From assembly GCA_036526035.1 (NCBI GenBank), contig DATCZG010000017.1, positions 42,773 to 66,772 of the forward strand: a stretch of 24,000 bases of DNA, read 5' to 3'. The notes below the pieces were generated by a model. The model was not told the origin of the DNA, searched no databases, and saw nothing but the letters and a program-made list of their open reading frames with translations. Position 1 is the stretch's first letter, and the number at the start of each line of letters is the position of its first letter. This document shows positions 3,907 through 16,453 of the stretch, in pieces. The DNA is from Ilumatobacter sp. (GTDB lineage Bacteria; Actinomycetota; Acidimicrobiia; Acidimicrobiales; Ilumatobacteraceae). The position numbers and the translations under genes were made by a program.

Positions 3907-4398
3907 TCAGCCCGGCATCGTCTCGGGCGGGCCGACGTGTTCGAGCCGGGCGGTGAACCCGATGTACTGCCACATCATGTGCCCGCCCTCCCGCCAGCGC
4001 TTGACCTCGATCGGCATCCCCACCGGACGCAGCACGTGCACCCCGTGCTCGTAGGCGGCGACGACCGTGATCGGCGTGGCCTTGTCGAACTCGGCGACGT
4101 CGTGCACGCCGTGGCCGACGGTGCCGTCGCAGCGCATGTCGTGGATCACGCCGCCGGCGGTGACGACCATCCGGTCGCCGGCCTGCTCGACGCGTTGCAC
4201 GGCGCCGAGCAGCCGGTGTCCGGGCTGGGGCACCCCGTCGACGAGCACCTCGACGACGCGCCACCAGCCGCGCAGATCCGGTGCCCCGGCGACCGGCGGT
4301 TCGCCGCAGCCGGCGAGGATCGGCTCGGGCACCCGGTCGCCGTAGCCGCCGGCGGGCGTGTGGGCGACGGGGACCGTGTCGACGCTGCGGCCCGTCAC
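3907..4398 (-). CDS. Hypothetical protein, 163 aa, function unknown, translationally coupled to TetR
   Basis: The GTG at 4398-4396 overlaps the TetR stop (GTGA on the minus strand). The C-terminal 163 aa of the 383-aa track ORF have normal composition (…LRGWWRVVEVLVDGVPQPGHRLLGAVQRVEQAGDRMVVTAGG…HMMWQYIGFTARLEHVG). The upstream part of that ORF is Arg/Pro-rich and overlaps TetR out of frame. I do not recognise the family. Confidence 0.6.
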   Translation of the reverse strand: MTGRSVDTVPVAHTPAGGYGDRVPEPILAGCGEPPVAGAPDLRGWWRVVEVLVDGVPQPGHRLLGAVQRVEQAGDRMVVTAGGVIHDMRCDGTVGHGVHDVAEFDKATPITVVAAYEHGVHVLRPVGMPIEVKRWREGGHMMWQYIGFTARLEHVGPPETMPG

Positions 4399-5024
4399 GA
4401 CCCACCCGCCCCGGTGAGGGGGTGCGGTGTCAGCAGGTGCGACAGCGCGCGCTCCCAGGCCCGCCGCACCTGAGGTGGTGTGCGCCCGAGTTGGCGGCTG
4501 ACGAGATCCCACGACTCGAACGAGGTCAGGGCGCAGGCGGCGATCGTGATGTCGTCGGCGGCTGCCGGTGCCAACCGGGCGAGTTCCGGGTCGAAGTGGT
4601 GTCGCACCTGGTCGGCGAGGGTGGCGTTGATCAAATGCACCAACTGGTTCGCCTCCTCGACGTCGTGGGCGCGCAGGCGCACCAGCCGGCACATCGGTTC
4701 GGTGGTCTCGTAGAGCGTCGCCCGCGACTCGACGAAGTGGGCGATCCGCTCGTCGAGCGGGCCCTCGCCGACGCCGGGGATGTCGAACAGGTGGGCGTAG
4801 CGGTCGAAGTAGGTGTCGATCGTCTGACGCCGCAGGTCGTCGAGGGTCTCGAAGTAGCGGAACAGCGACGCCACCGACACCCCGGCGCGCGCCGCGACCT
4901 GGTCGGCGGTGGGGGGCAGGTTGCCTTCGAACACGAGGTCGATCATCGCCTCGCTGACGGCGGCGAGGCTGCGCTGCCGCCGCGCCCGGCGTCCGTCGAC
5001 ATTCGGTTCGTGCTCGACTGGCAT
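4395..5024 (-). CDS. TetR/AcrR family transcriptional regulator, 209 aa
   Basis: N-terminal TetR HTH (SLAAVSEAMIDLVFEGNLPPTADQVAARAGVSVASLFRYFETLDDL). ATG at 5024-5022 is preceded by GGGAGGAG 6 nt upstream. It is divergent from the sulfatase operon. Confidence 0.9.
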   Translation of the reverse strand: MPVEHEPNVDGRRARRQRSLAAVSEAMIDLVFEGNLPPTADQVAARAGVSVASLFRYFETLDDLRRQTIDTYFDRYAHLFDIPGVGEGPLDERIAHFVESRATLYETTEPMCRLVRLRAHDVEEANQLVHLINATLADQVRHHFDPELARLAPAAADDITIAACALTSFESWDLVSRQLGRTPPQVRRAWERALSHLLTPHPLTGAGGS

Positions 5025-5225: not shown

Positions 5226-7502
5226 ATGACGCGAGCCAGTCGATTCCACGGCACGATCGGCCGCACGCTCGCCGATTCGCAGGCCTGGTTCGACGAGCCA
5301 CCGCACCCCGGGCCCGACGCACCCAACGTGGTGATCGTGCTGCTCGACGACACCGGGTTCGCCCAGTTCGGCTGCTACGGCTCCGACATCGACACCCCCC
5401 ACGTCGATGCGCTCGCGGCGGGCGGCGTGCAGTTCACCAACTTCCACGTCACGCCGCTGTGCTCGCCCACCCGCGCCTCGCTGCTGACCGGCCGCAGCCA
5501 GCACGCGGTGGGGATGCGCGCCGTGTCGAACTTCCGCACCGGGTTCCCCAACCAACTCGGCCACATCAGCAACCATGCGGCCACCGTCGCCGAGGTGCTA
5601 CGCGACGCCGGCTACGCCACGTTCTGCACCGGCAAGTGGCACCTCGCCCCGATGGAGCAGTGTTCGGCGGCCGGTCCGTTCGACCAGTGGCCGCTGGCGC
5701 GCGGGTTCGACCGCTTCTACGGGTTCCTCGAGGGCGAGACCGATCAGTTCCACCCCGAGCTCACCTGCGACAACCACCCGATCGACCCGCCCGCCAAGCC
5801 GGAGGACGGCTACCACCTGTCGGAGGACCTCGTCGACCAGCTGCTCAAGATGGTCTCGGACTCCAAGGGCGTGCGGCCCGACCGTCCGTTCTTCGCCTAC
5901 CTGCCCTTCGGCGCCACCCACGCCCCGCACCAGGCGCCCCAGCGCTACCTCGACAAGTACCGCGGCCGCTACGACGAGGGGTGGGACGTCGTGCGTGAGC
6001 GCTGGTACCGGCGGCAGCTCGAGCTGGGCGTGATCCCCGAGGGCACCCGGCTCGCCCCCCGCAACCCCGGTGTCGACGCCTGGGACACCCTGCCCGAGAA
6101 CCAGCGGCGGCTGGCGTGCCGCCTGCAGGAGGCGTTCGCCGCGTTCCTCGACCACACCGACGACCAGATCGGCCGGTTGGTCGCCGGCCTGCGCGAGATG
6201 GGCGAGTTCGACAACACGGTGTTCGTCGTGCTCGCCGACAACGGCGCCTCGCAGGAGGGCGGCCCGTTCGGTGTGATGCACGAGATGAAGTTCTTCAACG
6301 GCATCTTCGAGACCCCCGACGAGGCGATCGGCAAGATCGACCACATCGGCGGGCCGCACAGCCACACCAACTACCCGTGGGGCTGGGCGCAGTGCGGCAA
6401 CTCGCCGTTCAAGTGGTACAAGCAGAACACCCACGAGGGCGGGGTGCACGTCCCCCTCATCGTGCACGCCCCCGGCCTCGTCGCCGCCGACCAGGCCGGC
6501 ACCACGCGCCGCCAGTTCGTCAACGTGTCCGACATCGTGCCGACGATCTACGAACTCGTCGGCATCACGCCACCCGAGACCCACCGCGGCATCCCCCAGC
6601 TGCCGGTCACCGGCCACTCGTTCGCCGCGATCCTCGCCGACCCGGCGGCGCCGGCCGCCAACACGCTGCAGTACTTCGAGATGAGCGGCAGCCGGGCGCT
6701 CGTCGCCGGCGACCGGCAGTCGCTGTGGAAGGCGGTCTGCAAGCACACCCAGGGCGCCGACTACGACACCGAGCAGTGGGAGCTGTACCACCTCACCGAG
6801 GACTGGTCGGAGTGCAACGACCTCGCCGCGGCCGAGCCCGAACGGCTCGCCGAGCTGATCGCCCGGTGGTGGAGCGAGGCCGAGCGCCACGGCGTGCTGC
6901 CCCTCGACGACCGGATGGCCGAACTGTTCGCCAGCCGGTTCCGGCCCAATTCGCCGCACCCTGCCGACCGGCGCTACGTGTACCGGCCGCCGATGTCGCC
7001 GATGCCGGGCCAGGCCGCCGCCGCGATCGGTGGGCGCAGCTTCGACCTCACCGCCACCGTCACCCGCGCCGCCGGCGAAGAGGGCGTGCTGTACGCCACC
7101 GGTACCCAGAACGCCGGATTGTCGGTGTTCGTGCAGCACGACCGGCTGGTCGTCGACTACAACGCGTTCGACGACCACACCGTCGTCGAATCGACGCTCG
7201 AGGTGCCGACCGGGCGATCGACGCTGGTCGTCAAGGTCCGGCGCGGCGACGGCCGGTCGGGCGCGATCGAGCTCGAGGTCGACGGGCGGCCCGCCGGCGG
7301 CGCCGGGTTGCCGCTGTTCATGCGGATGATGTCGTCGGTCGGCCCGAGCGTCGGGTACGACCACGGTTCGCCGGTGTCGAACCGGTACGCGGCGCCGTTC
7401 CCGTTCGCCGGCAAGCTCCACGAGGTCGTGATCCAGCTGATCTCCAAGCAGGAACTCGACGCGCTCGCCGCCGTCGCGGCGTCCGAGATGAGCCGGCAAT
7501 GA
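5226..7502 (+). CDS. Arylsulfatase, type I (formylglycine-dependent, Cys-type), 758 aa
   Basis: N-terminal metal site [11 protein letters not shown]. Formylglycine motif [13 protein letters not shown] (Cys79 codon at 5460-5462). GKWHL motif (CTGKWHLAP). LADNGAS and a later sulfatase core. The SD AAGGGGG sits 4 nt upstream of the ATG. Confidence 0.92.
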
Positions 7503-8374
7503 GCCTGACGATCACCCTCCTCGGAACCGGCAGCCCGATGCCGAGCCCCGACCGGGCCGGCCCGGCCACGCTGATCTCGGCCGGCTCGGGCTTCGACGCC
7601 GAGCACTACCTCGTCGACGCCGGCCGCGGGGTGCTGATGCGCCTGGCGGCGGTGGGCGTCGGGGCGCCCGGCCTGGCGGCGGTGTTGATCACCCACCTCC
7701 ACAGCGACCACATCACCGATCTCAACGACGTCATCACCACCCGCTGGGTGATGACCCTGCCACCGGCGCCGATCAAGCCGCTGCGGATCATCGGCCCGGT
7801 CGGCACGCGCGCCGTGGTCGAGCACATCCTGGCATCGCTCGGCCCCGACATCGCCTACCGCATCGCCCACCACGACGACCTCGAACAGCCCCCGCTGGTC
7901 GAGGTGACCGAGGTCGCCGAGGGCGCCGTCGATCTGCCGGGCTCGGTGGCGGTCCGTTGCGCCCCGACCGACCACAAGCCGGTCGAGCCGAGCGTGGGCT
8001 ACCGCTTCGACGTCGCCGGCGCCGCCGTGGTCGTCGCCGGCGACACCGTGCCCTGCGACGGCCTCGACGGCCTGTGTGCCGGCGCCGACGCCCTCGTGCA
8101 CACCGTCATCCGCAAGGACATCATCGCCAACGTGCCGGTCCAGCGGATGCTCGACACGCTCGACTACCACTCGTCGCCCGAGGAGGCGGCGCGCACCGCG
8201 GCCCGCGCCGGCGTGGGCACCTTGGTGCTGACCCACTACGTGCCGCCGATCCCCACCGGTACCCCCGGCGACGACTGGCGTGCACTGGCCGCCGCCCACT
8301 TCGACGGCGCGATCGAGATCGGCGACGACCTGCATCGGGTCGAGATCGCCACCAACCCGGCCCAGGAGGCCTGA
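7499..8374 (+). CDS. MBL-fold metallo-hydrolase, RNase Z/ElaC-like, 291 aa
   Basis: ATG at 7499 is in an ATGA overlap with the sulfatase stop. N-terminus [21 protein letters not shown]. HxHxDH metal motif ([11 protein letters not shown]). C-terminal LVLTHY. Confidence 0.85.
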
Positions 8375-8377
8375 ACC

Positions 8378-9289
8378 ATGCACGTCCTACGCACCCCCGA
8401 CGACCGCTTCGCCGATCTGCCCGGCTACCCGTTCGAGCCGCACTACGGCGAGGTCCCCGACGGCGAGGGCGGCACCCTGCGGATGCACTACCTCGACGAG
8501 GGGCCGCGCACCGGGCCGGCCGTGCTGTTGCTGCACGGCGAGCCGTCGTGGAGCTACCTCTACCGCCACATGATCGCGCCGCTGGTCGAGTCGGGCTGTC
8601 GCGTCGTCGCCCCCGACCTGATCGGGTTCGGGCGCAGCGACAAGCCGACCCTCACGAGCGACTACAGCTACGCCCGCCACATCGCCTGGGTCGAGGCGCT
8701 GGTGTTCGGGCATCTCGACCTGAACGACATCACCTACTTCGGTCAGGACTGGGGCGGCCTGATCGGGCTGCGGCTGGTGGCGGCGCACGGCGGCCGTTTC
8801 GCCCGCGTCGCGATCGGCAACACCGGCCTGCCGACGGGGGAGGGACGGCCCAGCGATGCCTTCCTCGCCTGGCAGAGGTTCTCGCAGGAGTCGCCGACGT
8901 TCCCGATCGGTTCGATCGTCAACGGCGGCTGCGCGACCGACCTGCCGCCCGAGGTGATCGCCGCCTACGACGCCCCGTTCCCCGACGACACCTACACCGC
9001 CGGAGCGCGGATCTTCCCGTCGTTCGTGCCCACCTCGACCGCCGACCCGGAGTCGGCGAACAACGCCGCCGCCTGGCAGCAGCTGGCGCAGTTCGACCGG
9101 CCGTTCCTGCTGTGCTTCAGCGATCGCGACCCGATCACCGCCGGCGGCGACGCGCCGTTCCTGGCCAAGGTGCCGGGTACCCGCGGCCAGCCCCACGTCA
9201 CGATCGAGGGCGCCCGCCACTTCCTCCAGGAGGACAAGGGTGCCGAGCTGGCGGCGGTGCTGCTCGGCTTCATCGGGGCCGACCGGTGA
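8378..9289 (+). CDS. dhmA: Haloalkane dehalogenase (alpha/beta hydrolase, HLD-I type), 303 aa
   Basis: RTPDDRFADLPGYPFEPHY…LRMHYLDEGP…LLLHGEPSWSYLYRHMI…PDLIGFGRSDKP. Nucleophile elbow GQDWGG (Asp-Trp). C-terminal catalytic His in GARHFLQEDKG. Starts 3 nt after the MBL stop. Confidence 0.88.
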   Translation: MHVLRTPDDRFADLPGYPFEPHYGEVPDGEGGTLRMHYLDEGPRTGPAVLLLHGEPSWSYLYRHMIAPLVESGCRVVAPDLIGFGRSDKPTLTSDYSYARHIAWVEALVFGHLDLNDITYFGQDWGGLIGLRLVAAHGGRFARVAIGNTGLPTGEGRPSDAFLAWQRFSQESPTFPIGSIVNGGCATDLPPEVIAAYDAPFPDDTYTAGARIFPSFVPTSTADPESANNAAAWQQLAQFDRPFLLCFSDRDPITAGGDAPFLAKVPGTRGQPHVTIEGARHFLQEDKGAELAAVLLGFIGADR

Positions 9290-9308
9290 ACGAGCCCCGA
9301 CCGCTCGA

Positions 9309-9355
9309 CCCCGGCCGCCGCCGGGGCACGACGCGTCGAGCCGGCCGGGCGCCGG
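9309..9355 (+). other. Cluster of GC-rich stem-loops/palindromes in the intra-operon gap
   Basis: CCCCGGC-cgcc-GCCGGGG (9309-9326; 7-bp stem, 4-nt loop). Perfect palindrome CGACGCGTCG (9329-9338). CCGGC-cgggc-GCCGG (9341-9355). No T-tract follows. Confidence 0.45.
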
Positions 9356-9374
9356 GTGCGGCGAGGCGAAGCGC

Positions 9375-9824
9375 GTGACCGCCGTCGTCAAGACCCGGGT
9401 GGTCGCGTCCCCGAGCGAGCGGGTGTGGGACGTCCTCGCGGCGTTCGAACGCATCGCCGAATGGGCGCCGGAGGTCGATCACTCGAGCCTGCTCACCGAA
9501 CACGGGTCAGGCGTCGGAGCCGTCCGTCGGGTGCAGCTCGGGCGGATGGTGCTGACCGAGACGGTGCGTACCTGGCAGGCCGGCTCGGGCTTGTCGTACA
9601 CGATCGCAGGCCTGCCGCCGGTGGTGCGTTCGGTCGTCAACACCTGGCAGCTCGAGCCGGCGAGCGACGGCACGCTCGTCGTGTTGACCACCGAGATCGA
9701 CGCCGGCCCCCGGCCACCGCAGCTGTTGATCGCCCGGGCCGTCGGCCGCCGTCTCGGCGCCGCCGGCGACAGCATGCTCGCCGGACTCGCCGCACACCTC
9801 GAACGACAGGAGCGCCCGACATGA
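9375..9824 (+). CDS. SRPBCC (polyketide cyclase/dehydrase, lipid-binding START-like) family protein, 149 aa
   Basis: GTG at 9375 with GAGG about 8 nt upstream. Typical SRPBCC N-terminus (VVKTRVVASPSERVWDVLAAFERIAEWAP). The stop overlaps the next gene's ATG (ATGA at 9821-9824). The track ORF's N-terminal extension from 9240 is Pro/Arg-rich and lies over the stem-loop region. Confidence 0.75.
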   Translation: MTAVVKTRVVASPSERVWDVLAAFERIAEWAPEVDHSSLLTEHGSGVGAVRRVQLGRMVLTETVRTWQAGSGLSYTIAGLPPVVRSVVNTWQLEPASDGTLVVLTTEIDAGPRPPQLLIARAVGRRLGAAGDSMLAGLAAHLERQERPT

Positions 9825-12415
9825 GCACCACCCGCCCCGACGTGATCATCCTGATGACCGACGAGGAGCGCGCCGCGCCCCCGTACGAGTCCGACGACGT
9901 GGCGCGATGGCGACGCGAGACGCTCACCGGCGCCGCCTGGTTCGACGACCACGCCGTCAACTTCCGGCGCCACTACACCGGCTCGTTGGCATGCGTCCCC
10001 AGCCGGCCGACGATGTTCACCGGCCAGTACCCCGACCTGCACGGGGTCACCCAGACCGACGGGCTCGGCAAGATGCACGACGACACCCGGATGCGCTGGC
10101 TGCCCGCCGGTGAGGTGCCCACGCTCGGCAACTGGTTCCGGGCCGGCGGGTACGACACCCACTACGACGGCAAGTGGCACCTCTCCCACGCCGATCTGCA
10201 CGACGCCGACGGCCGCCGGTTGGACACCAACGACAGCGCCGGTGTCGTCGACGCCGCGGCGGTGCAGCGCTACCTCGACGCCGACCCGCTCGACCCCTAC
10301 GGGTTCTCGGGATGGGTCGGCCCGGAACCGCACGGCGGTTCGCTCGCCGACGCCGGCGTGCGCCGCGACCCCTTGATCGCGGCCCGGGTCGTCGCCTGGC
10401 TCCACGATCGCTACCAGCGGCGCCGCGCCGGCGACCCCGACGCCCAGCGGCCGTTCCTGCTCGTCGCCAGCTTCGTCAACCCACACGACATCGTGCTGTT
10501 CCCGCTGTGGTCGCGCCGCGGCGTTCCGCTCGAGTCGCCGTCGCCGCTCGACCCGCCGCCGGTCGCCGCCGCCCCGACCGCCGGCGAGGACCTCGCCGCC
10601 AAGCCGGCCGCCCAGATCGCCTACCGGGCGTCGTATCCCAGCGGGTACGGCCCGGCGGCCACGGTCGCCCGGCTCTACGACCAGCGTGCCCAGCAGTACC
10701 GCGACCTGTACCACCGGTTGCACGCCGAGGTCGACGGCCCGCTCGACCAGGTCCGCCGGGCGGTCACCGACGGCGGGTCCGAGCACGCCGTCATCGTGCG
10801 CACCAGCGACCACGGCGACCTGCTCGGCGCGCACGGTGGCCTGCACCAGAAGTGGTTCACGCTCTACGACGAGGCCACCCGGGTGCCGTTCTCGATCGCC
10901 CGGGTCGGCGCGGGTGCCACCACGGGCTCGGTGATCGCCGACGCCCCGACGTCGCACGTCGACCTCGTGCCGACCCTGCTCGCGGCGGCGGGCATCGACA
11001 CCGAGATGGCGGCCGAGGTGCTGCGCGAGTCGTTCAGCGAGGTGCACCCGCTGCCGGGCCGCAACCTGATGCCGGTCGTCGACGCCGTCGAGCCGGCCGA
11101 CCGCGACCGCCCGGTGTACCTGATGACCCGCGACAACATGCTCGAGGGCGACACGCTGGCGTCGGGCGTGGCACGCCGTCTGGGCCGCACCGCCAAGCCG
11201 CCCGCACCACTGCGGATCCGGGTGCCCGCCCACGTCGGCGCCAACTTCGAAGGGTTGGTGGCGCGGGTCGCCGACGCCGACGCCCCCGGCGCCGCCGGCC
11301 ACCTGTGGAAGCTGGTGCGCACGTTCGACGACCCGGCGACGTGGACCGAGCCGGGCGTCCGCCATCTCGCCGCCAGCGGCCCCGGCGGCGACGAGTACCG
11401 CACCCGCCCGGTGCCCGACCAGTGGGAGCTCTACGACCTCGACGCCGACCCGGCCGAGGCCGTCAACCGCTGGCGCGACCCGGCCGCCTCGGCGGTGTTC
11501 GACCACCTGCGCGGCGAGTTGAAGGCCGAGCGGGCACGCGCCGTGCCCGAACGCAACGCGCCGTGGCCGTACGCGGCACGGCGGTCGCCCGCCGGCCCGC
11601 CGCGCAAGCAGCCGCCACCCCCGGCGCGCGCCGCCCGGAAGCTGCTGCAGCGCCTCGGCATGCACCCCGACGACACCGAACCCTTCGAGGTCGACGTCGA
11701 CCTCAGCGGGCGGCGGGCGCTCGTCGTCGCCACCAACCACGGCACGCTCGACATCGGCAAGCCGACCGGCGTGTTCGCCAGCGAGATGACCGTGCCGTAC
11801 TACGCGTTCCACGACGCCGGCATGAGCGTCGACGTCGCCAGCCCCAACGGCGGCGTGATCCCGGTCGACCCGATGTCGCTCAAGCCGGTGATCCGCACCG
11901 CCGAGGACGACCGCTTCCTCGCCGACGACGACTTCCGGGCGAAGGTGACCGGTTCGTTCGCGATCGGCGACCTCGACATGACGGCCTACGACATCGTGTT
12001 CCTGGCCGGCGGCTGGGGGGCGGCGTTCGACTTCGGTTTCAGCGAGGCCCTGGCCACCAAGATCACCGAGGCGAACGCCGCCGGCAAGGTGATCGGCGGC
12101 GTCTGCCACGGCCCGCTCGGCCTGCGCAACGCACTCGGCACCGACGGCCGCCCGCTCGTCGAGGGCCGCCGCGTCACCGGGGTGTCCGACAAGCAGGTGC
12201 GCGAGCTGGGCATCGCGTCGACACCTCACCACCCCGAGGCCGAGCTGCGCCGGATGGGGGCGGCGTACGAATCGGTCAGCCGGTTCCGAGACCCGTTCGC
12301 CAACCACTGGGTCGTCGACGGCAACCTGGTGACCGGACAGAACCAGAACGCCGGGCCGATGGTGGCCCGCGAGATGCTCAAGCTGGTCGTCGACCGGCTC
12401 ACGGCGCAGGCCTGA
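9821..12415 (+). CDS. Fusion protein: N-terminal Cys-type sulfatase domain plus C-terminal DJ-1/PfpI/Hsp31-like (class I glutamine amidotransferase-like) domain, 864 aa
   Basis: Sulfatase part: DVIILMTDEER, formylglycine motif ACVPSRPTMFTGQYP (Cys58 codon 9992-9994), YDGKWHLS, RTSDHGDLLGAHGGLHQKWFTLYDEATRVPFSI. A Pro/Arg-rich linker follows (…SPAGPPRKQPPPPARAARK…). DJ-1/Hsp31 part from about 11711: ALVVATNHG…YDIVFLAGGWGAAFDF…GKVIGGVCHGPLGL (nucleophile Cys codon 12104-12106, followed by His)…VVDGNLVTGQNQNAG. Confidence 0.9.
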   Translation: MSTTRPDVIILMTDEERAAPPYESDDVARWRRETLTGAAWFDDHAVNFRRHYTGSLACVPSRPTMFTGQYPDLHGVTQTDGLGKMHDDTRMRWLPAGEVPTLGNWFRAGGYDTHYDGKWHLSHADLHDADGRRLDTNDSAGVVDAAAVQRYLDADPLDPYGFSGWVGPEPHGGSLADAGVRRDPLIAARVVAWLHDRYQRRRAGDPDAQRPFLLVASFVNPHDIVLFPLWSRRGVPLESPSPLDPPPVAAAPTAGEDLAAKPAAQIAYRASYPSGYGPAATVARLYDQRAQQYRDLYHRLHAEVDGPLDQVRRAVTDGGSEHAVIVRTSDHGDLLGAHGGLHQKWFTLYDEATRVPFSIARVGAGATTGSVIADAPTSHVDLVPTLLAAAGIDTEMAAEVLRESFSEVHPLPGRNLMPVVDAVEPADRDRPVYLMTRDNMLEGDTLASGVARRLGRTAKPPAPLRIRVPAHVGANFEGLVARVADADAPGAAGHLWKLVRTFDDPATWTEPGVRHLAASGPGGDEYRTRPVPDQWELYDLDADPAEAVNRWRDPAASAVFDHLRGELKAERARAVPERNAPWPYAARRSPAGPPRKQPPPPARAARKLLQRLGMHPDDTEPFEVDVDLSGRRALVVATNHGTLDIGKPTGVFASEMTVPYYAFHDAGMSVDVASPNGGVIPVDPMSLKPVIRTAEDDRFLADDDFRAKVTGSFAIGDLDMTAYDIVFLAGGWGAAFDFGFSEALATKITEANAAGKVIGGVCHGPLGLRNALGTDGRPLVEGRRVTGVSDKQVRELGIASTPHHPEAELRRMGAAYESVSRFRDPFANHWVVDGNLVTGQNQNAGPMVAREMLKLVVDRLTAQA

Positions 12416-12425
12416 CAGGAGCGAG

Positions 12426-13238
12426 ATGGCCGACACCCCCCGCTACGGACAGGTCGACCGGGACTACGGCATCCGGCTGGCCACGACACCGCCCGACGAG
12501 GACGGTCCGATCTGGATGGTCAACTTGATGAAGTACCGCGAGCACGCCGACTACGGCGACGGCGGCGGGCCGGCGATCAGCGGCCGTGAGGCCGACGACC
12601 TCTACACCCCGTTCGACGTGCTCGCCGCGATCGGCGCCGAGGTCGTGTTCGCCGCCGACGTCGACCAGCAGTTGCTCGGCGCCGCGCCGCAGTGGGACCG
12701 GGTGGCGATCGTGAAGTACCCGACGCGTCGCTCGTTCATCGAGATGCAGAGCCGGCCCGACTTCCAGCGCCGCCACGTGCACAAGGACGCCGGGATGGAG
12801 ACGACGATCGTCAGCGGCTGCCTGCCGATCGCGCTGCCCGCCGGCGATCCGGTCGACTGGGCCGACGTGCCCCACCCGCCGACCGCCGATGACGGTCCGG
12901 TGGTGGTGATCCACGTGCTGAAGTTCCAGGCGTCGACGGCGGTGACACCCGACGAGATGGTCGCCTACCAGCAGGCCGCGGCCCGGGTGGCGGTGCCCCA
13001 CGGGGTGCGGCTGAACGGGTGGTTCGCGGTCGAGGGCACGATCCTGGGCGACGGCCGCTCGTGGGACCAGATCCGGTTCAACGAGTTCCCCAGCAAGGCG
13101 GCGTTCATGGCCGTGGCGCTCGACCCGGCCCGGCTCGATGCCCAGCACGGCCACCGCGAGGTGGCGATCGCCGACACCTACACGATGATCCTGCGGGCCC
13201 ACGTCAACCGGCTGGCCGAGTCGATCGCCGCCGGCTGA
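12426..13238 (+). CDS. Protein with two tandem DUF1330-like (dimeric alpha/beta-barrel) domains, 270 aa
   Basis: AGGAG 5 nt upstream of the ATG. Two internal repeats end in the DUF1330-like block: WDRVAIVKYPTRRSFIEMQSRPDFQ and WDQIRFNEFPSKAAFMAVALDPARL. Confidence 0.8.
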   Translation: MADTPRYGQVDRDYGIRLATTPPDEDGPIWMVNLMKYREHADYGDGGGPAISGREADDLYTPFDVLAAIGAEVVFAADVDQQLLGAAPQWDRVAIVKYPTRRSFIEMQSRPDFQRRHVHKDAGMETTIVSGCLPIALPAGDPVDWADVPHPPTADDGPVVVIHVLKFQASTAVTPDEMVAYQQAAARVAVPHGVRLNGWFAVEGTILGDGRSWDQIRFNEFPSKAAFMAVALDPARLDAQHGHREVAIADTYTMILRAHVNRLAESIAAG

Positions 13239-13265: not shown

Positions 13266-14069
13266 TCAGTCGGCGAGCGTGCCGGCGAACACCTGCCAGG
13301 CGAGGGCGCTCTTGGCGGCCAGGCTGAGCACGAGGTACACCTGCTCGCCGTAGAGGTAGTCGGCGAACCTGCCGCGGCCGCGGTACTGCAGCCACTGGTT
13401 GAGGGCGAAGCAGTTGAACAGCACGAACAGCGACACGAAGATGCCGTACACGAAGCCGGGCACGCCGTCGCCTTCGCGTTGTGAGGTGATCAGCGCGATC
13501 GCGATCACGATCCAGGGCACGATGCCGGCGAGGCCGCCCAGCGTGAACGGCCACCAGTCGACCGGGTCGCCGGGCCGGTTGGTGCGTTCCATCAGCCAGC
13601 CGAAGGCGATCATCGCGGCGTTGACGGCGAACAGCCCGATCAGGGCGTAGAGGTTGGTGATCCCGGGCAGCATCGCGATCAGCACGACCATCAGCGAGGC
13701 GCTCACCGAGTACTCGATCCACCGGGCGACGTTGATGCCGCGTCGCAGGTTCGCCTCGTACCAGCCGACGACGCCCGGGGCGGCCATCAGCAGGTGATCG
13801 GCGGCGGCGAGGAACAGGAACACCGCGATCGCGACCGAGAACCGGAGATCGAAGAACACGTGCTCGATCGTGAGCGGGGTGCCGGGAGGCCCGTCCTGCA
13901 CCGGCGCCCCCACCGCGATCGCGAAGCCGTTGCCGAGCAGCAGGATCAGCACGCCCTGTGCGAGGTGGGCGACGCCGACGCCGACGTTCCAGCGCCGCAG
14001 GCGTGCCAGGCGGTCGACCACCGGGGCGCTGGTCGGATCGACGCTGGTCGGATCGGCGCTGGTGCTCAC
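13266..14069 (-). CDS. Heliorhodopsin (retinal-binding 7-TM photoreceptor, inverted topology), about 267 aa
   Basis: Block-by-block resemblance to heliorhodopsin 48C12 as I remember it: GVAHLAQ (TM1 His), ADHLLM (TM2 His), RWIEYSVSASLMVVLIA (counterion Glu), VNAAMIAFGWL, PGFVYGIFVSLFVLFNCFALNQWLQYRGRG, YLVLSLAAKSALAWQVFAGTL (Schiff-base Lys codon 13311-13313). The start is uncertain. GTG 14069 is chosen because it is the first start codon after ATG 14204. The 14070-14204 stretch has lower GC3 and overlaps the upstream gene's end. Confidence 0.9.
   Translation of the reverse strand: MSTSADPTSVDPTSAPVVDRLARLRRWNVGVGVAHLAQGVLILLLGNGFAIAVGAPVQDGPPGTPLTIEHVFFDLRFSVAIAVFLFLAAADHLLMAAPGVVGWYEANLRRGINVARWIEYSVSASLMVVLIAMLPGITNLYALIGLFAVNAAMIAFGWLMERTNRPGDPVDWWPFTLGGLAGIVPWIVIAIALITSQREGDGVPGFVYGIFVSLFVLFNCFALNQWLQYRGRGRFADYLYGEQVYLVLSLAAKSALAWQVFAGTLAD
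14028..14063. repeat. 15-nt in-frame tandem repeat in the heliorhodopsin N-terminal tail
   Basis: GCTGGTCGGATCGAC (14028-14042), GCTGGTCGGATCGGC (14043-14057) and partial GCTGGT (14058-14063). On the minus strand this encodes S-ADPTS-VDPTS-A. Confidence 0.75.
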
Positions 14070-14181: not shown

Positions 14182-15012
14182 TCACTCCCCGTGGGCCGGC
14201 ACACCGGCGGTGAACACCGGCCGGTCCGCGGCCCGGCGCACGGTGGTGCGAGCCCGGGCGACCAGGTCGGCGAGCGGCTGTCCGGCGCCGCCGACGAGGG
14301 TGGCGACCCCCGCGGCCGCGAGGTCGCCGGCGGCAGCCGCGGCGGTCGCCGCCACGTCCGGCTGGGTGACGGTGATCACGGCGACGTCGACGCCGTTCCC
14401 GGTGCAGAACCGGATGAACTCGGCCGCCGGGAGGTCGGCCCCGAGGTGGTGCACGTGCCAGTGGTCGGCCCGCAGGGCGACCGCCGCCATGGTGGTCGGC
14501 AACGAATGCCGGTCGCCCGACAGCGCGGCCACCGCAGCGGTGCCGCGGCGGCGGCCGCGCGGGTTCGGGGCGAGCTCGCCGAGCAACCGTTCGACGATCG
14601 CCGACGCCCGGTGTTCGGCCCAGATCGTGAGGTCGCCCGTCGACCAGGCGCTGCCGATCGCCCGCAACGACGGGGCGAGCACCTGCTCGACGAGATCGAG
14701 GATCGGTGTGCCCTCGGCGACCAGGCGGGTGGCGATCCGGACGGCGGCGGCCTCGTCGCCGGCGACCAGCGCGGCGTGCATCCGCTCGGCGGCGTGGTGC
14801 ATCCGGGCCGGTCGCGGCGGTGGCGGCGCCTGCGGCGCCCGCCGCGACCGCTCGAGTTCGGCGGCCGCCGAACGCGACACCAGGTAACGACCGGCGACCA
14901 TCTCGGCCGGCAGGGTCCCGTTGCGCACCCATCGGTAGGCGGTCTGGTAGTGCACGCCGAGCAGTTCGGCGGCCGCCGCCAACTCGACTCGTTCCTCGGC
15001 CGCTGCATCCAC
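14182..15012 (-). CDS. HTH (excisionase/MerR-superfamily) plus cobalamin(B12)-binding domain transcriptional regulator, CarH/LitR-like candidate photoreceptor, 276 aa
   Basis: N-terminal HTH AAAELLGVHYQTAYRWVRNGTLPAEMVAGRYLVS. Helical-bundle motif W-x9-EH = W123 STGDLTIWA E133 H134 (codons 14646-14611). B12-binding Rossmann part with SGDRHSLP (D-x-H-x-x-P; His169 codon 14508-14506), …DVAVITVT…, …LVGGAG. GTG start at 15012. Confidence 0.85.
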   Translation of the reverse strand: MDAAAEERVELAAAAELLGVHYQTAYRWVRNGTLPAEMVAGRYLVSRSAAAELERSRRAPQAPPPPRPARMHHAAERMHAALVAGDEAAAVRIATRLVAEGTPILDLVEQVLAPSLRAIGSAWSTGDLTIWAEHRASAIVERLLGELAPNPRGRRRGTAAVAALSGDRHSLPTTMAAVALRADHWHVHHLGADLPAAEFIRFCTGNGVDVAVITVTQPDVAATAAAAAGDLAAAGVATLVGGAGQPLADLVARARTTVRRAADRPVFTAGVPAHGE

Positions 15013-15152: not shown

Positions 15153-15187
15153 CTTCGGCCCCTGCCGCCAGCGTGAACGGAGACGAC

Positions 15188-16453
15188 GTGACCACCACCC
15201 CACGAGCCGCCGAGCCGGCCTTGCCGGCGACCACCGACGTCGTGATCGTCGGTGCCGGCCTGGCCGGTCTCGCCGCGGCGCGGGTGCTGTGCGATGCCGG
15301 CCGCGACGTGGTGCTGCTCGAGGCGTCCGACGGGGTCGGCGGCCGGGTCCGCACCGACGTCGTCGACGGGTTCCGGCTCGACCGCGGCTTCCAGGTGCTG
15401 CTCACCGCCTACCCCGAGCTGCACACCCAGTTCGACCTCGACGCGCTCGACCTGCGGCGCTTCGAGCCGGGGGCGATGGTGTGGAACGGCTCGTCGCTGC
15501 ACCTGGTGGGCGACCCGTTCCGGCGCCCCCGCACGCTCCTCGCAACTGCCACGGCACCGGTCGGGTCGATCGCCGACAAGCTGCGCATCCTGCGCCAGCG
15601 GGTTCGTCTCGCCCGTTCCGGCGCCCCCGATCTGCTGCGGGGCGACGACGTCTCGACGATCGCCGCGCTGCGCGCCCAGGGGTTCAGCGACCGGATCGTC
15701 GAACGTTTCTTCCGGCCGCTGGTGGGCGGCATCCAACTCGACCCGGCGCTCGCCACCAGCCGGCGGATGTTCGACGTCATCCTGCGCAGCCTGATCGAGG
15801 GTGACGTGGCCGTGCCGGCGGCGGGCATGGGGGCGATCCCCGCCCAGCTGGCCGGTCACCTGCCCCCCGGGGTGGTCCGGCTCGGCACCGAGGTCGCCGC
15901 CGTCGCCCCGGGCGGGGTCACCGTCGCCGACGGCCGCCACATCGGCGCGCCGCGGGTGATCGTGGCCACCGAGGGGCCCCGGGCGGCGGCGCTGCTGGGC
16001 CTGCCGGAGGTCGGCTCCAAGCCGGCGTCGTGCGTGTGGTACGCGGCCGACGCCGCCCCGATCGACGGCCGCTACATCGTGCTCGACGGCACCGGCCGCG
16101 GGCCGGCGCTCAACACGTCGGTGATGAGCAACGTCGCCCCCGAGTACGCCCCGGGCGGTCAGGCCTTGATCGCCGCCGCCTGCCCGGGGGTCCACGACCC
16201 GGCGATCGAGCCGGCGGTGCGGGCCCAACTGCGGGCGATGTGGGGCCCGGCGGTCGACGCGTGGCGCCACCTGCGCACCGATGCGATCCTCCACGGCCAG
16301 CCCCGCCAGGAACCACCGTTCGATCCGCGTCGGCGGGTGGCCCTCGGCGACGGCCTGTTCGTCTGCGGCGACCACCGCGACACGGCCTCGATCCAGGGCG
16401 CTTTGTTCTCGGGTCGGCGCTGCGGCGAGGCGGTCGCCGCATCGTTCACCTGA
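15188..16453 (+). CDS. NAD(P)/FAD-dependent oxidoreductase, amine-oxidase/phytoene-desaturase-like fold, about 421 aa
   Basis: Rossmann dinucleotide motif DVVIVGAGLAGLAAARVL…VVLLEASDGVGGRV. C-terminal flavin motif LFVCGDHRDTASIQGALFSGRRCGEAV. GTG 15188 has GGAG 5 nt upstream. The in-frame GTG 15173 (track start) is an alternative. Confidence 0.85.
   Translation: MTTTPRAAEPALPATTDVVIVGAGLAGLAAARVLCDAGRDVVLLEASDGVGGRVRTDVVDGFRLDRGFQVLLTAYPELHTQFDLDALDLRRFEPGAMVWNGSSLHLVGDPFRRPRTLLATATAPVGSIADKLRILRQRVRLARSGAPDLLRGDDVSTIAALRAQGFSDRIVERFFRPLVGGIQLDPALATSRRMFDVILRSLIEGDVAVPAAGMGAIPAQLAGHLPPGVVRLGTEVAAVAPGGVTVADGRHIGAPRVIVATEGPRAAALLGLPEVGSKPASCVWYAADAAPIDGRYIVLDGTGRGPALNTSVMSNVAPEYAPGGQALIAAACPGVHDPAIEPAVRAQLRAMWGPAVDAWRHLRTDAILHGQPRQEPPFDPRRRVALGDGLFVCGDHRDTASIQGALFSGRRCGEAVAASFT

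Follow-up and report, generated by a model that had tools for sequence, protein, structure and literature searches.

A sulfatase and a DJ-1/Hsp31-like domain joined in one polypeptide of a dehalogenase-containing operon from Ilumatobacter

What might a sulfatase have to do with a DJ-1/Hsp31-like domain carried on the same polypeptide? The question is raised by a gene at positions 9821 to 12415 (+ strand) of a 24,000-nucleotide stretch of DNA, referred to here as the window, from contig DATCZG010000017.1 of an Ilumatobacter sp. metagenome-assembled genome (MAG). A sequence-only reading of the gene had suggested that desulfation releases a reactive carbonyl product that the DJ-1 domain processes in cis. 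The analysis described below identifies the fusion as a genuine single gene, both of whose catalytic centers are under strong constraint, and finds that a gene set encoding a haloalkane dehalogenase (HLD), a metallo-beta-lactamase (MBL)-fold hydrolase, this DJ-1 subtype, and a DUF1330-like protein recurs across two phyla with alternative fusion partners. The evidence supports pathway-level coupling of the two halves and stops short of a hand-off from the sulfatase to the DJ-1 domain.

Gene model, distribution, and predicted structure

Translation of positions 9821 to 12415 yields 864 codons and a stop codon with zero internal stops, in agreement with the uninterrupted open reading frame (ORF) first described. 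The product, which lacks a signal peptide, is 100% identical to the NCBI protein HEY5662987.1 of the Ilumatobacter sp. MAG. Its ATG (9821) overlaps the TGA of the preceding gene (ATGA) and has an AGGAG sequence 9 nt on its 5' side. The window DNA is high in GC (0.70 to 0.76), and the GC content of third codon positions (GC3) is 0.96 over the entire fusion ORF; a start search by GC3 selects 9821. A longer in-frame ORF beginning at 9356 was rejected as the gene, and the start was placed at 9821, because homologs begin at the equivalent of MSTTRPD. Pfam matches to the product are Sulfatase (residues 6 to 392; E value, 2e-38), SGSH_C (residues 532 to 571), and DJ-1_PfpI (residues 653 to 854; E value, 1e-12), and the motifs CVPSR (residue 58; nt 9992), GKWH (residue 117), SDHGD (residue 329), HQKW (residue 342), and VCHGP (residue 761) bear out the complete Cys-type sulfatase, linker, and DJ-1/Hsp31-like domain with an elbow Cys-His that had been read from the sequence. 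The cysteine that had been marked for mutation at nt 12104 is exactly Cys762; the catalytic Cys is present when the domain is aligned and is invariant in 70 sequences.

Among genomes sampled at one per GTDB species, 339 relatives were identified, and the locus counts given here rest on the best 80 of these, all of which are full length (query residues ~1 to 860) with 69 to 86% identity. At least 120 database matches are all 807 to 904 residues long with the Sulfatase plus DJ-1 architecture and 73 to 87% identity, the 120 best being drawn from NCBI, ENA, JGI, Logan, and Tara assemblies. Carriers among the best 80 of the 339 relatives are mostly Acidimicrobiia (Ilumatobacteraceae, Microthrixaceae, and sponge-associated lineages), including the cultured organisms Actinospongicola halichondriae and Salinilacustrithrix flava; further carriers are Nocardioides sp. 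Root1257, N. hankookensis, and Frankiales and Mycobacteriales MAGs, and complete genomes of cultured strains also hold the uninterrupted gene. Because clustering at 50% leaves the full-length family with a single representative (P0121, 71% identical), the family appears to be tight and slowly evolving. One contig (L023, JBLIKS010000163.1; 6.6 kb) carrying a fusion gene of 75% identity is binned under the nonactinobacterial name "Candidatus Azotimanducaceae," a placement that probably reflects a binning error rather than transfer.

The same collinear architecture thus recurs in at least 80 species-level genomes and at least 120 protein clusters, for which reason the fusion is not an assembly artifact. 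The sequence-only reading had asked for a check for a missed stop or frameshift near positions 11550 to 11710; by comparison, none is present there, since 69 full-length homologs, assembled independently, align collinearly across the connector with gaps of at most 4%. A related contig (L087) does have separate sulfatase and DJ-1 ORFs, as would be expected if adjacent genes had been merged in the MAG by such an error. It was the sole candidate for a naturally split version and was rejected as one: a run of ~10 C in the proline-rich connector (positions 2400 to 2600) coincides with the frameshift that separates the two ORFs, the contig coverage is 5.7x, and the frameshift is probably a sequencing error, which shows that the poly-Pro codons of the connector are prone to error or slippage. 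Against the uninterrupted genes of the complete genomes and the uniform GC3, the chance that the window gene is a merger of two genes is negligible.

The combination had been thought uncharacterized, and a targeted full-text literature search found no description of a sulfatase plus DJ-1 architecture. It is nonetheless not rare. The architecture is abundant and is already annotated automatically (JGI labels the proteins [quoted passage not shown]), so the possibility raised at the outset, that it is a common and already characterized fusion, holds for the first part and not for the second, neither a description nor an experiment having been found in the literature searched.

Conservation was assessed by aligning the window protein to the 69 full-length relatives from the loci (70 sequences). 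The sulfatase and DJ-1 halves are conserved to an equal degree, with column identities of ~0.7 to 0.9. The Pro/Arg-rich connector between them (11543 to 11710, +; residues ~575 to 630) is the least conserved part, with column identities of 0.66 to 0.75, a gap fraction of at most 0.04, and some conserved elements; it is of fixed length and has a predicted helix at residues 600 to 611. The AlphaFold2 model of the whole chain has a mean pLDDT of 88.8 and a pTM of 0.74, with no segment below 50 and a connector pLDDT of 66 to 86. In this model strand 1 of the sulfatase starts at residue 7, which leaves no room for a signal peptide, and the protein is on this basis predicted to be cytoplasmic.

Two catalytic centers in the fusion protein

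The N-terminal module (9821 to 11590, +; residues 1 to ~590, including the SGSH_C subdomain) is assigned as a type I sulfatase of the AtsF (Rv3077) type from its Pfam matches and its identity to unfused proteins. The match to PF00884 covers the full model length (1 to 301), as expected of a type I sulfatase. The formylglycine motif, C58-V-P-S-R62 (9992 to 10006, +), lies inside the conserved block YTGSLACVPSRPT and continues as P-T-M-F-T-G; C58, P60, S61, and R62 show no variation among 69 sequences, unfused orthologs among them. D14, K118, H120, H222, D330, H331, and K344 are likewise all invariant columns in the alignment with unfused orthologs, and from knowledge of the family we take them to have metal- or sulfate-binding roles. 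In the 70-sequence alignment, YTGSLACVPSRPT, GKWH, and DHGxLLGxHGGxxQKW form conserved sulfatase blocks with isolated variable positions only.

Foldseek matches the module to many S1 structures with a probability of 1.00 at only ~18 to 20% identity, and these matches include phosphonate monoester hydrolases besides S1 sulfatases. The possibility therefore arises that the module is in vivo a phosphonate-monoester or phosphodiester hydrolase of the formylglycine superfamily and that its operon serves organophosphorus esters. Consistent with this, the top sequence match among solved structures is the phosphonate monoester hydrolase 4upk (E value, 4e-13), the phosphoric/sulfuric ester hydrolase PehA is among the NCBIfam matches below threshold, and an MBL neighbor (see below) resembles phosphodiesterases. 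All of the matches to characterized enzymes are, however, remote and do not discriminate between the activities, and sulfatases dominate the match lists, so that a phosphorus-directed role seems quite improbable.

The closest unfused relatives of the sulfatase module are Mycobacterium and Mycolicibacterium proteins of 586 to 600 aa that are 71 to 75% identical to residues 1 to ~590, the member at the M. tuberculosis locus being ~73% identical. Gene order there is PgmA, CrcB, other genes, an HpcH/HpaI-family gene, an SRPBCC gene, the sulfatase, a small SOI-family protein, a luciferase-like protein, and a large kinase; the SRPBCC-sulfatase-SOI-family stretch corresponds to Rv3076-Rv3077-Rv3078. 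High full-length identity and the same upstream SRPBCC partner (Rv3076) indicate that the sulfatase half is an ortholog of mycobacterial AtsF. In a rough neighbor-joining tree without support values, rooted on distant unfused proteins (46% identity), the unfused mycobacterial proteins nest inside the fused clade, a topology suggestive of loss of the DJ-1 domain in mycobacteria. No type I sulfatase predicted in M. tuberculosis, AtsF included, has a known substrate (PMC3675115), and a 2026 review describes Rv3076 as START-like, functionally unassigned, and located in one operon with rv3077 and rv3078 (PMC13525633). In some M. tuberculosis assemblies (L081 and L082, positions 7001 to 9271) the AtsF homolog is 756 aa long (P0369); in tblastn, query residues 4 to 479 are followed directly by residues 323 to 587, which points to an internal tandem duplication (~157 residues) absent from the ~600-aa form.

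The C-terminal half (11711 to 12412, +; residues ~631 to 864) is a DJ-1/PfpI domain of Hsp31/YDR533c-like type according to Pfam, PDB, and Foldseek matches. The PF01965 match lies above the gathering score, which places the domain in the DJ-1 superfamily. Its nearest solved relatives are 1u9c (E value, 1.5e-35), 4p5p, 3n7t, the Candida albicans glyoxalase III structure 4lru (5e-20), and yeast Hsp31 (1.5e-17) and Hsp33; Foldseek superposes it on 1u9c with a TM score of 0.90, a root mean square deviation of 2.2 Å, and 34% identity. These comparisons assign the domain to the YDR533c/Hsp31 class. Cys762-His763 (12104 to 12109, +) lies in the block GG[V/I]CHGPL, in which G759-G760 and C762-H763-G764-P765-L766 are invariant across the 70 sequences; in the AlphaFold2 model Cys762 ends strand 757-762 and is followed by helix 764-768, forming a nucleophile elbow. 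Glu655 (11783 to 11785, +), in the motif TGVxxSExTxPYY, aligns with a conserved Glu of Glx3, Hsp31, and 1u9c; C762, H763, and E655 are all invariant and align with their counterparts in 4lru, 4qyx, and 1u9c. Together with LAGGWGAA and ANHWVVDGxxxTGQNQNAxPMVAR, these two motifs make up the conserved DJ-1 blocks, which have only isolated variable positions.

The Hsp31-type catalytic identity first proposed for this domain stands as far as the Cys-His pair and Glu655 are concerned; a full copy of the Glx3/Hsp31 site it is not. In the HMMER alignment the Glu that completes the triad in Glx3/Hsp31 aligns to a Val ("sdkqvrelg" against "tdigedilg" of Glx3), and the usual GGHG is GGWG. An invariant Glu stands two residues past that Val, and structural superposition could revise the alignment. 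Scores fall far below the NCBIfam cutoffs for HchA (27 versus 365 bits), DJ-1-family glyoxalase III (22 versus 131 bits), and PfpI (27.5 versus 139 bits). The domain is, judging from its conserved residues, very probably a Cys-dependent enzyme; because of the Val and the GGWG motif, methylglyoxalase activity should not be assumed, and that label would go beyond the evidence.

The missing triad Glu also bears on whether the domain is catalytic at all. Large-subunit catalases carry a DJ-1-like C-terminal domain, and the DJ-1 half could be a comparable appendage with a structural, oligomerization, chaperone-like, or redox-sensing role; the fixed-length connector and the pTM of the predicted model suggest that it packs on the sulfatase, and a redox-sensing Cys would be conserved too. 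Invariance of Cys762-His763, Glu655, and the pocket motifs, which are kept as well in the MBL-DJ-1 fusions described below, is nevertheless typical of an active site, and a noncatalytic role appears improbable.

The operon and exchange of fusion partners

The fusion gene is one of six closely spaced + strand genes (5226 to 13238) that make up an operon, upstream of which lies a divergently oriented TetR-family gene. ATGA overlaps occur at 7499 and 9821, and gaps of 3 nt (MBL/HLD) and 10 nt (fusion/DUF1330-like) separate two further pairs. The TetR-family gene (4395 to 5024, -; Pfam TetR_N), present in 43 to 51 of the 80 loci, is a candidate repressor of the operon. The first operon gene (5226 to 7502, +; Pfam Sulfatase E value, 1e-64), whose stop overlaps the next start and which is found in 51 to 52 of the 80 loci, encodes a second type I sulfatase of 758 aa, AtsA/AtsD-like in size. 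It is only distantly related to the sulfatase of the fusion (BLASTP E value, 0.005), and a recent duplication as the origin of the two was rejected on that ground. An HLD-I haloalkane dehalogenase gene (8378 to 9289, +; NCBIfam NF002043, 451 bits versus 265; best PDB match, 4mj3; E value, 4e-117) is present in 52 of the 80 loci, and its nearest solved structures are haloalkane dehalogenases. It is followed by an SRPBCC/START-like gene resembling Rv3076 (~9360 to 9824, +; Pfam Polyketide_cyc2 E value, 1e-21), whose stop overlaps the fusion start; an SRPBCC gene lies directly upstream of the fusion in 79 of the 80 loci, and the same pairing is found in M. tuberculosis. Ten nucleotides 3' of the fusion, the last gene (12426 to 13238, +) encodes a 270-aa DUF1330-like protein with a weak Pfam DUF1330 match and a PDB match to RPA0582 (E value, 1e-10), and such a gene lies directly downstream of the fusion in 33 of 71 loci. 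Where at least 6.5 kb of upstream sequence is available (n = 53), SRPBCC occurs in 52 loci, the 758-aa sulfatase in 43, MBL in 38, TetR in 36, and HLD in 33. Loci of Nocardioides, Frankiales, and Mycobacteriales are rearranged so that the dehalogenase lies downstream of the fusion, to which it is still linked. Occasional neighbors are GST-like (15 loci) and DinB_2 (11 loci) genes, which fit a theme of handling electrophiles.

The remaining operon gene (7499 to 8374, +) encodes an RNase-Z-like MBL-fold hydrolase related to Rv2407 (NCBIfam NF000806, 394 bits versus 363). It passes the equivalog cutoff for "ribonuclease Z" yet sits within a sulfatase/dehalogenase operon. Its PDB matches are to the MBL-fold "Arysulfatase" 8gyg over the full length and to Escherichia coli RNase Z (2cbn) over the N-terminal third only, and the RNase Z name may be wrong for this actinobacterial Rv2407-like family. 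Rv2407, the M. tuberculosis counterpart, is a putative type III sulfatase (PMC3675115).

An ORF of 163 aa (3907 to 4398, -) that adjoins the TetR gene shows strong coding GC3 and is conserved in 9 related loci, with no Pfam or NCBIfam match. Just 3' of the operon are a heliorhodopsin gene (13266 to 14069, -; PF18761, E value 1e-93), a regulator with helix-turn-helix and B12-binding domains that resembles light sensors (14182 to 15012, -), and a flavin amine-oxidase/phytoene-desaturase-like gene (15173 to 16453, +), possibly a light-responsive cluster. A link of the heliorhodopsin and B12-regulator genes to the fusion was rejected; they occupy this position in only 2 to 3 of the 80 loci.

Outside the fusion family, the closest relatives of the DJ-1 half (52 to 57% identical) are the C-terminal domains of MBL-DJ-1 proteins, of which there are 16 clusters (P0213 and P0271 to P0285) from Myxococcota, Deltaproteobacteria, and "Ca. 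Magnetomorum." Their DJ-1 part has the same GGWGAA and DKQVxELG signatures as the sulfatase fusion, and their MBL part is 27 to 30% identical to the MBL hydrolase of the window (30% for P0213). In three of four loci examined, an HLD homolog 39 to 43% identical to that of the window adjoins the MBL-DJ-1 gene; it is full length in L083 and L090 and a truncated gene call of 185 residues in L088. Locus L083 also has a DUF1330-like homolog (38.5% identical), a second MBL gene (32%), and a TetR gene. An OmpR-type two-component system is found near the Myxococcota MBL-DJ-1 genes (L083, 7001 to 16057; L088, 4991 to 7577; L090, 4438 to 8375), and P0213, with a lipoprotein-type signal sequence and a MORN repeat, is likely exported. 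In Kofleriaceae, two proteins (P0378 in L084, 7001 to 9265, and P0392 in L085, 637 to 2901) combine an AtsF-type sulfatase with a C-terminal SRPBCC domain (residues ~615 to 748) at the position held by DJ-1 in the window fusion; in Actinobacteria the SRPBCC protein is encoded by a separate upstream gene.

These alternative fusions point to two submodules, one of SRPBCC and AtsF and one of HLD, MBL, DJ-1, and DUF1330-like proteins, which the AtsF-DJ-1 fusion would join in many Actinobacteria. Because in Myxococcota an MBL hydrolase is the fusion partner of the DJ-1 subtype, beside a dehalogenase homolog and with no sulfatase nearby, the subtype appears to belong to a conserved dehalogenase/MBL/DJ-1 module and not specifically to the sulfatase. 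Repair or maturation of formylglycine by the DJ-1 domain is disfavored for a related reason, the MBL hydrolase to which the subtype is also fused having no formylglycine. The original suggestion, in which the sulfatase would pass its own product to the DJ-1 domain in cis, is plausible and possible; it is not specifically supported, and the natural occurrence of each head without the other weakens it.

The reading that we favor, tentatively and at a little less than an even chance, is that the fusion would be a two-headed cytoplasmic enzyme in a TetR-controlled operon that removes good leaving groups (sulfate and halide) from hydrophobic organic compounds, with its halves coupled through the pathway. 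Cys58 would be converted to formylglycine by a formylglycine-generating enzyme (FGE) encoded elsewhere, and the formylglycine hydrate, with a metal on D14 and D330/H331 and with K118, H120, H222, and K344, would cleave a sulfate ester by the chemistry of the family. For the translationally coupled SRPBCC protein, the probable role is to bind or present a hydrophobic substrate or product, and the dehalogenase and MBL hydrolase may take other leaving groups off the same class of compounds. The Cys762 thiolate, aided by His763 and Glu655, would then attack an electrophilic carbon, which could be that of an aldehyde, a 2-oxoaldehyde, or an activated acyl intermediate arising from the co-encoded dehalogenase, MBL hydrolase, and sulfatases, and hydrolysis of the adduct would give a harmless acid or hydroxy acid.

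Several observations weigh against this reading. No gene for FGE or for an anaerobic sulfatase-maturating enzyme (anSME) is present in the window, and none for FGE among the conserved neighbor clusters. The mycobacterial AtsF orthologs have neither a DJ-1 domain nor a nearby dehalogenase, and sulfatase and SRPBCC genes are absent from the four MBL-DJ-1 loci, so that the heads are separable. The Val and GGWG substitutions depart from the known Hsp31-class site, and the MBL gene, being above the RNase Z cutoff, might encode a plain tRNA-processing enzyme. Neither a substrate nor an activity has been assigned to AtsF, to Rv3076, or to this DJ-1 subtype (PMC3675115, PMC13525633).

Separability would also be expected if two independent enzymes had been fused for coexpression or stoichiometry only and acted on unrelated molecules, for example in sulfate scavenging and in general carbonyl-stress detoxification. 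Detection of M. abscessus AtsF only under carbon starvation suggests scavenging (preprint, bioRxiv 10.64898/2026.05.05.723019). The fixed-length, moderately conserved connector and the ~70% identity across classes argue instead for a constrained assembly, and the DJ-1 subtype keeps company with the same set of hydrolases in two phyla, which is unexpected for a general stress enzyme; we therefore consider fusion of unrelated activities somewhat unlikely. Pathway-level coupling can be extended to a more specific and more doubtful proposal, in which the fusion would physically link two ancient submodules that together form an undescribed pathway for hydrophobic natural compounds bearing both sulfate and halide (chlorosulfolipid-type or halogenated alkyl-sulfate metabolites), the DJ-1 Cys quenching the carbonyl left after removal of the leaving groups.

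Fusions of known folds are common and both folds here are textbook ones; the finding owes its value to the genomic context, not to the fusion as such. Two results extend the original observation: a connection to M. tuberculosis AtsF/Rv3076, and the conserved dehalogenase/MBL/DJ-1 module with its swapped fusion partners. The fusion family provides AtsF with conserved partners and with culturable carriers for study. Which compounds haloalkane dehalogenases act on in nature, and what chemistry most bacterial DJ-1 proteins perform in the cell, are questions of long standing, and the recurrence of dehalogenase, MBL hydrolase, and DJ-1 in two phyla turns three "orphan" enzymes into one testable pathway. 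If the proposed sulfate and halide pathway is correct, it would offer the first lead on the function of M. tuberculosis AtsF/Rv3076 and would supply HLD-I dehalogenases with a natural role.

Comparison with known systems

Like the fusion, mycobacterial AtsF has an SRPBCC gene directly upstream and overlapping, is predicted to be cytoplasmic, and carries a Cys-type formylglycine motif; unlike the fusion, it ends at ~590 to 600 residues and lacks both the DJ-1 domain and the dehalogenase and MBL neighbors. More distant S1 relatives, namely BetC (6fny/6g5z), the phosphonate monoester hydrolases 4upk and 2vqr, BuS1_11 (7lha), and BT1596 (5g2t), have the alkaline-phosphatase-like fold and the formylglycine active-site residues in common with the sulfatase module, whereas their identity to it is ~18% and the window module reaches ~590 residues through extra insertions. 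None of the solved structures matched by Foldseek contains both a sulfatase and a DJ-1 module. The dehalogenase of the window matches 4mj3 (HLD-I), which we take to be DmrA of Mycobacterium rhodesiae JS60, over its full length, and is a neighbor in the operon and not a part of the fusion.

Free-standing proteins of the Hsp31 class, represented by 1u9c (Geobacillus stearothermophilus APC35852), 4lru (C. albicans Glx3), and 4qyx (yeast Hsp31), share with the DJ-1 half the fold, the elbow Cys-His, and the Glu in the region of the first helix; the window domain differs from them in being fused and in having Val at the triad Glu and GGWG for GGHG. The MBL-DJ-1 proteins differ from the window fusion in that the partner of the DJ-1 domain is an MBL hydrolase instead of a sulfatase, and they resemble it in the DJ-1 subtype and in a neighborhood that includes an HLD homolog and RNase-Z-like MBL, DUF1330-like, and TetR genes.

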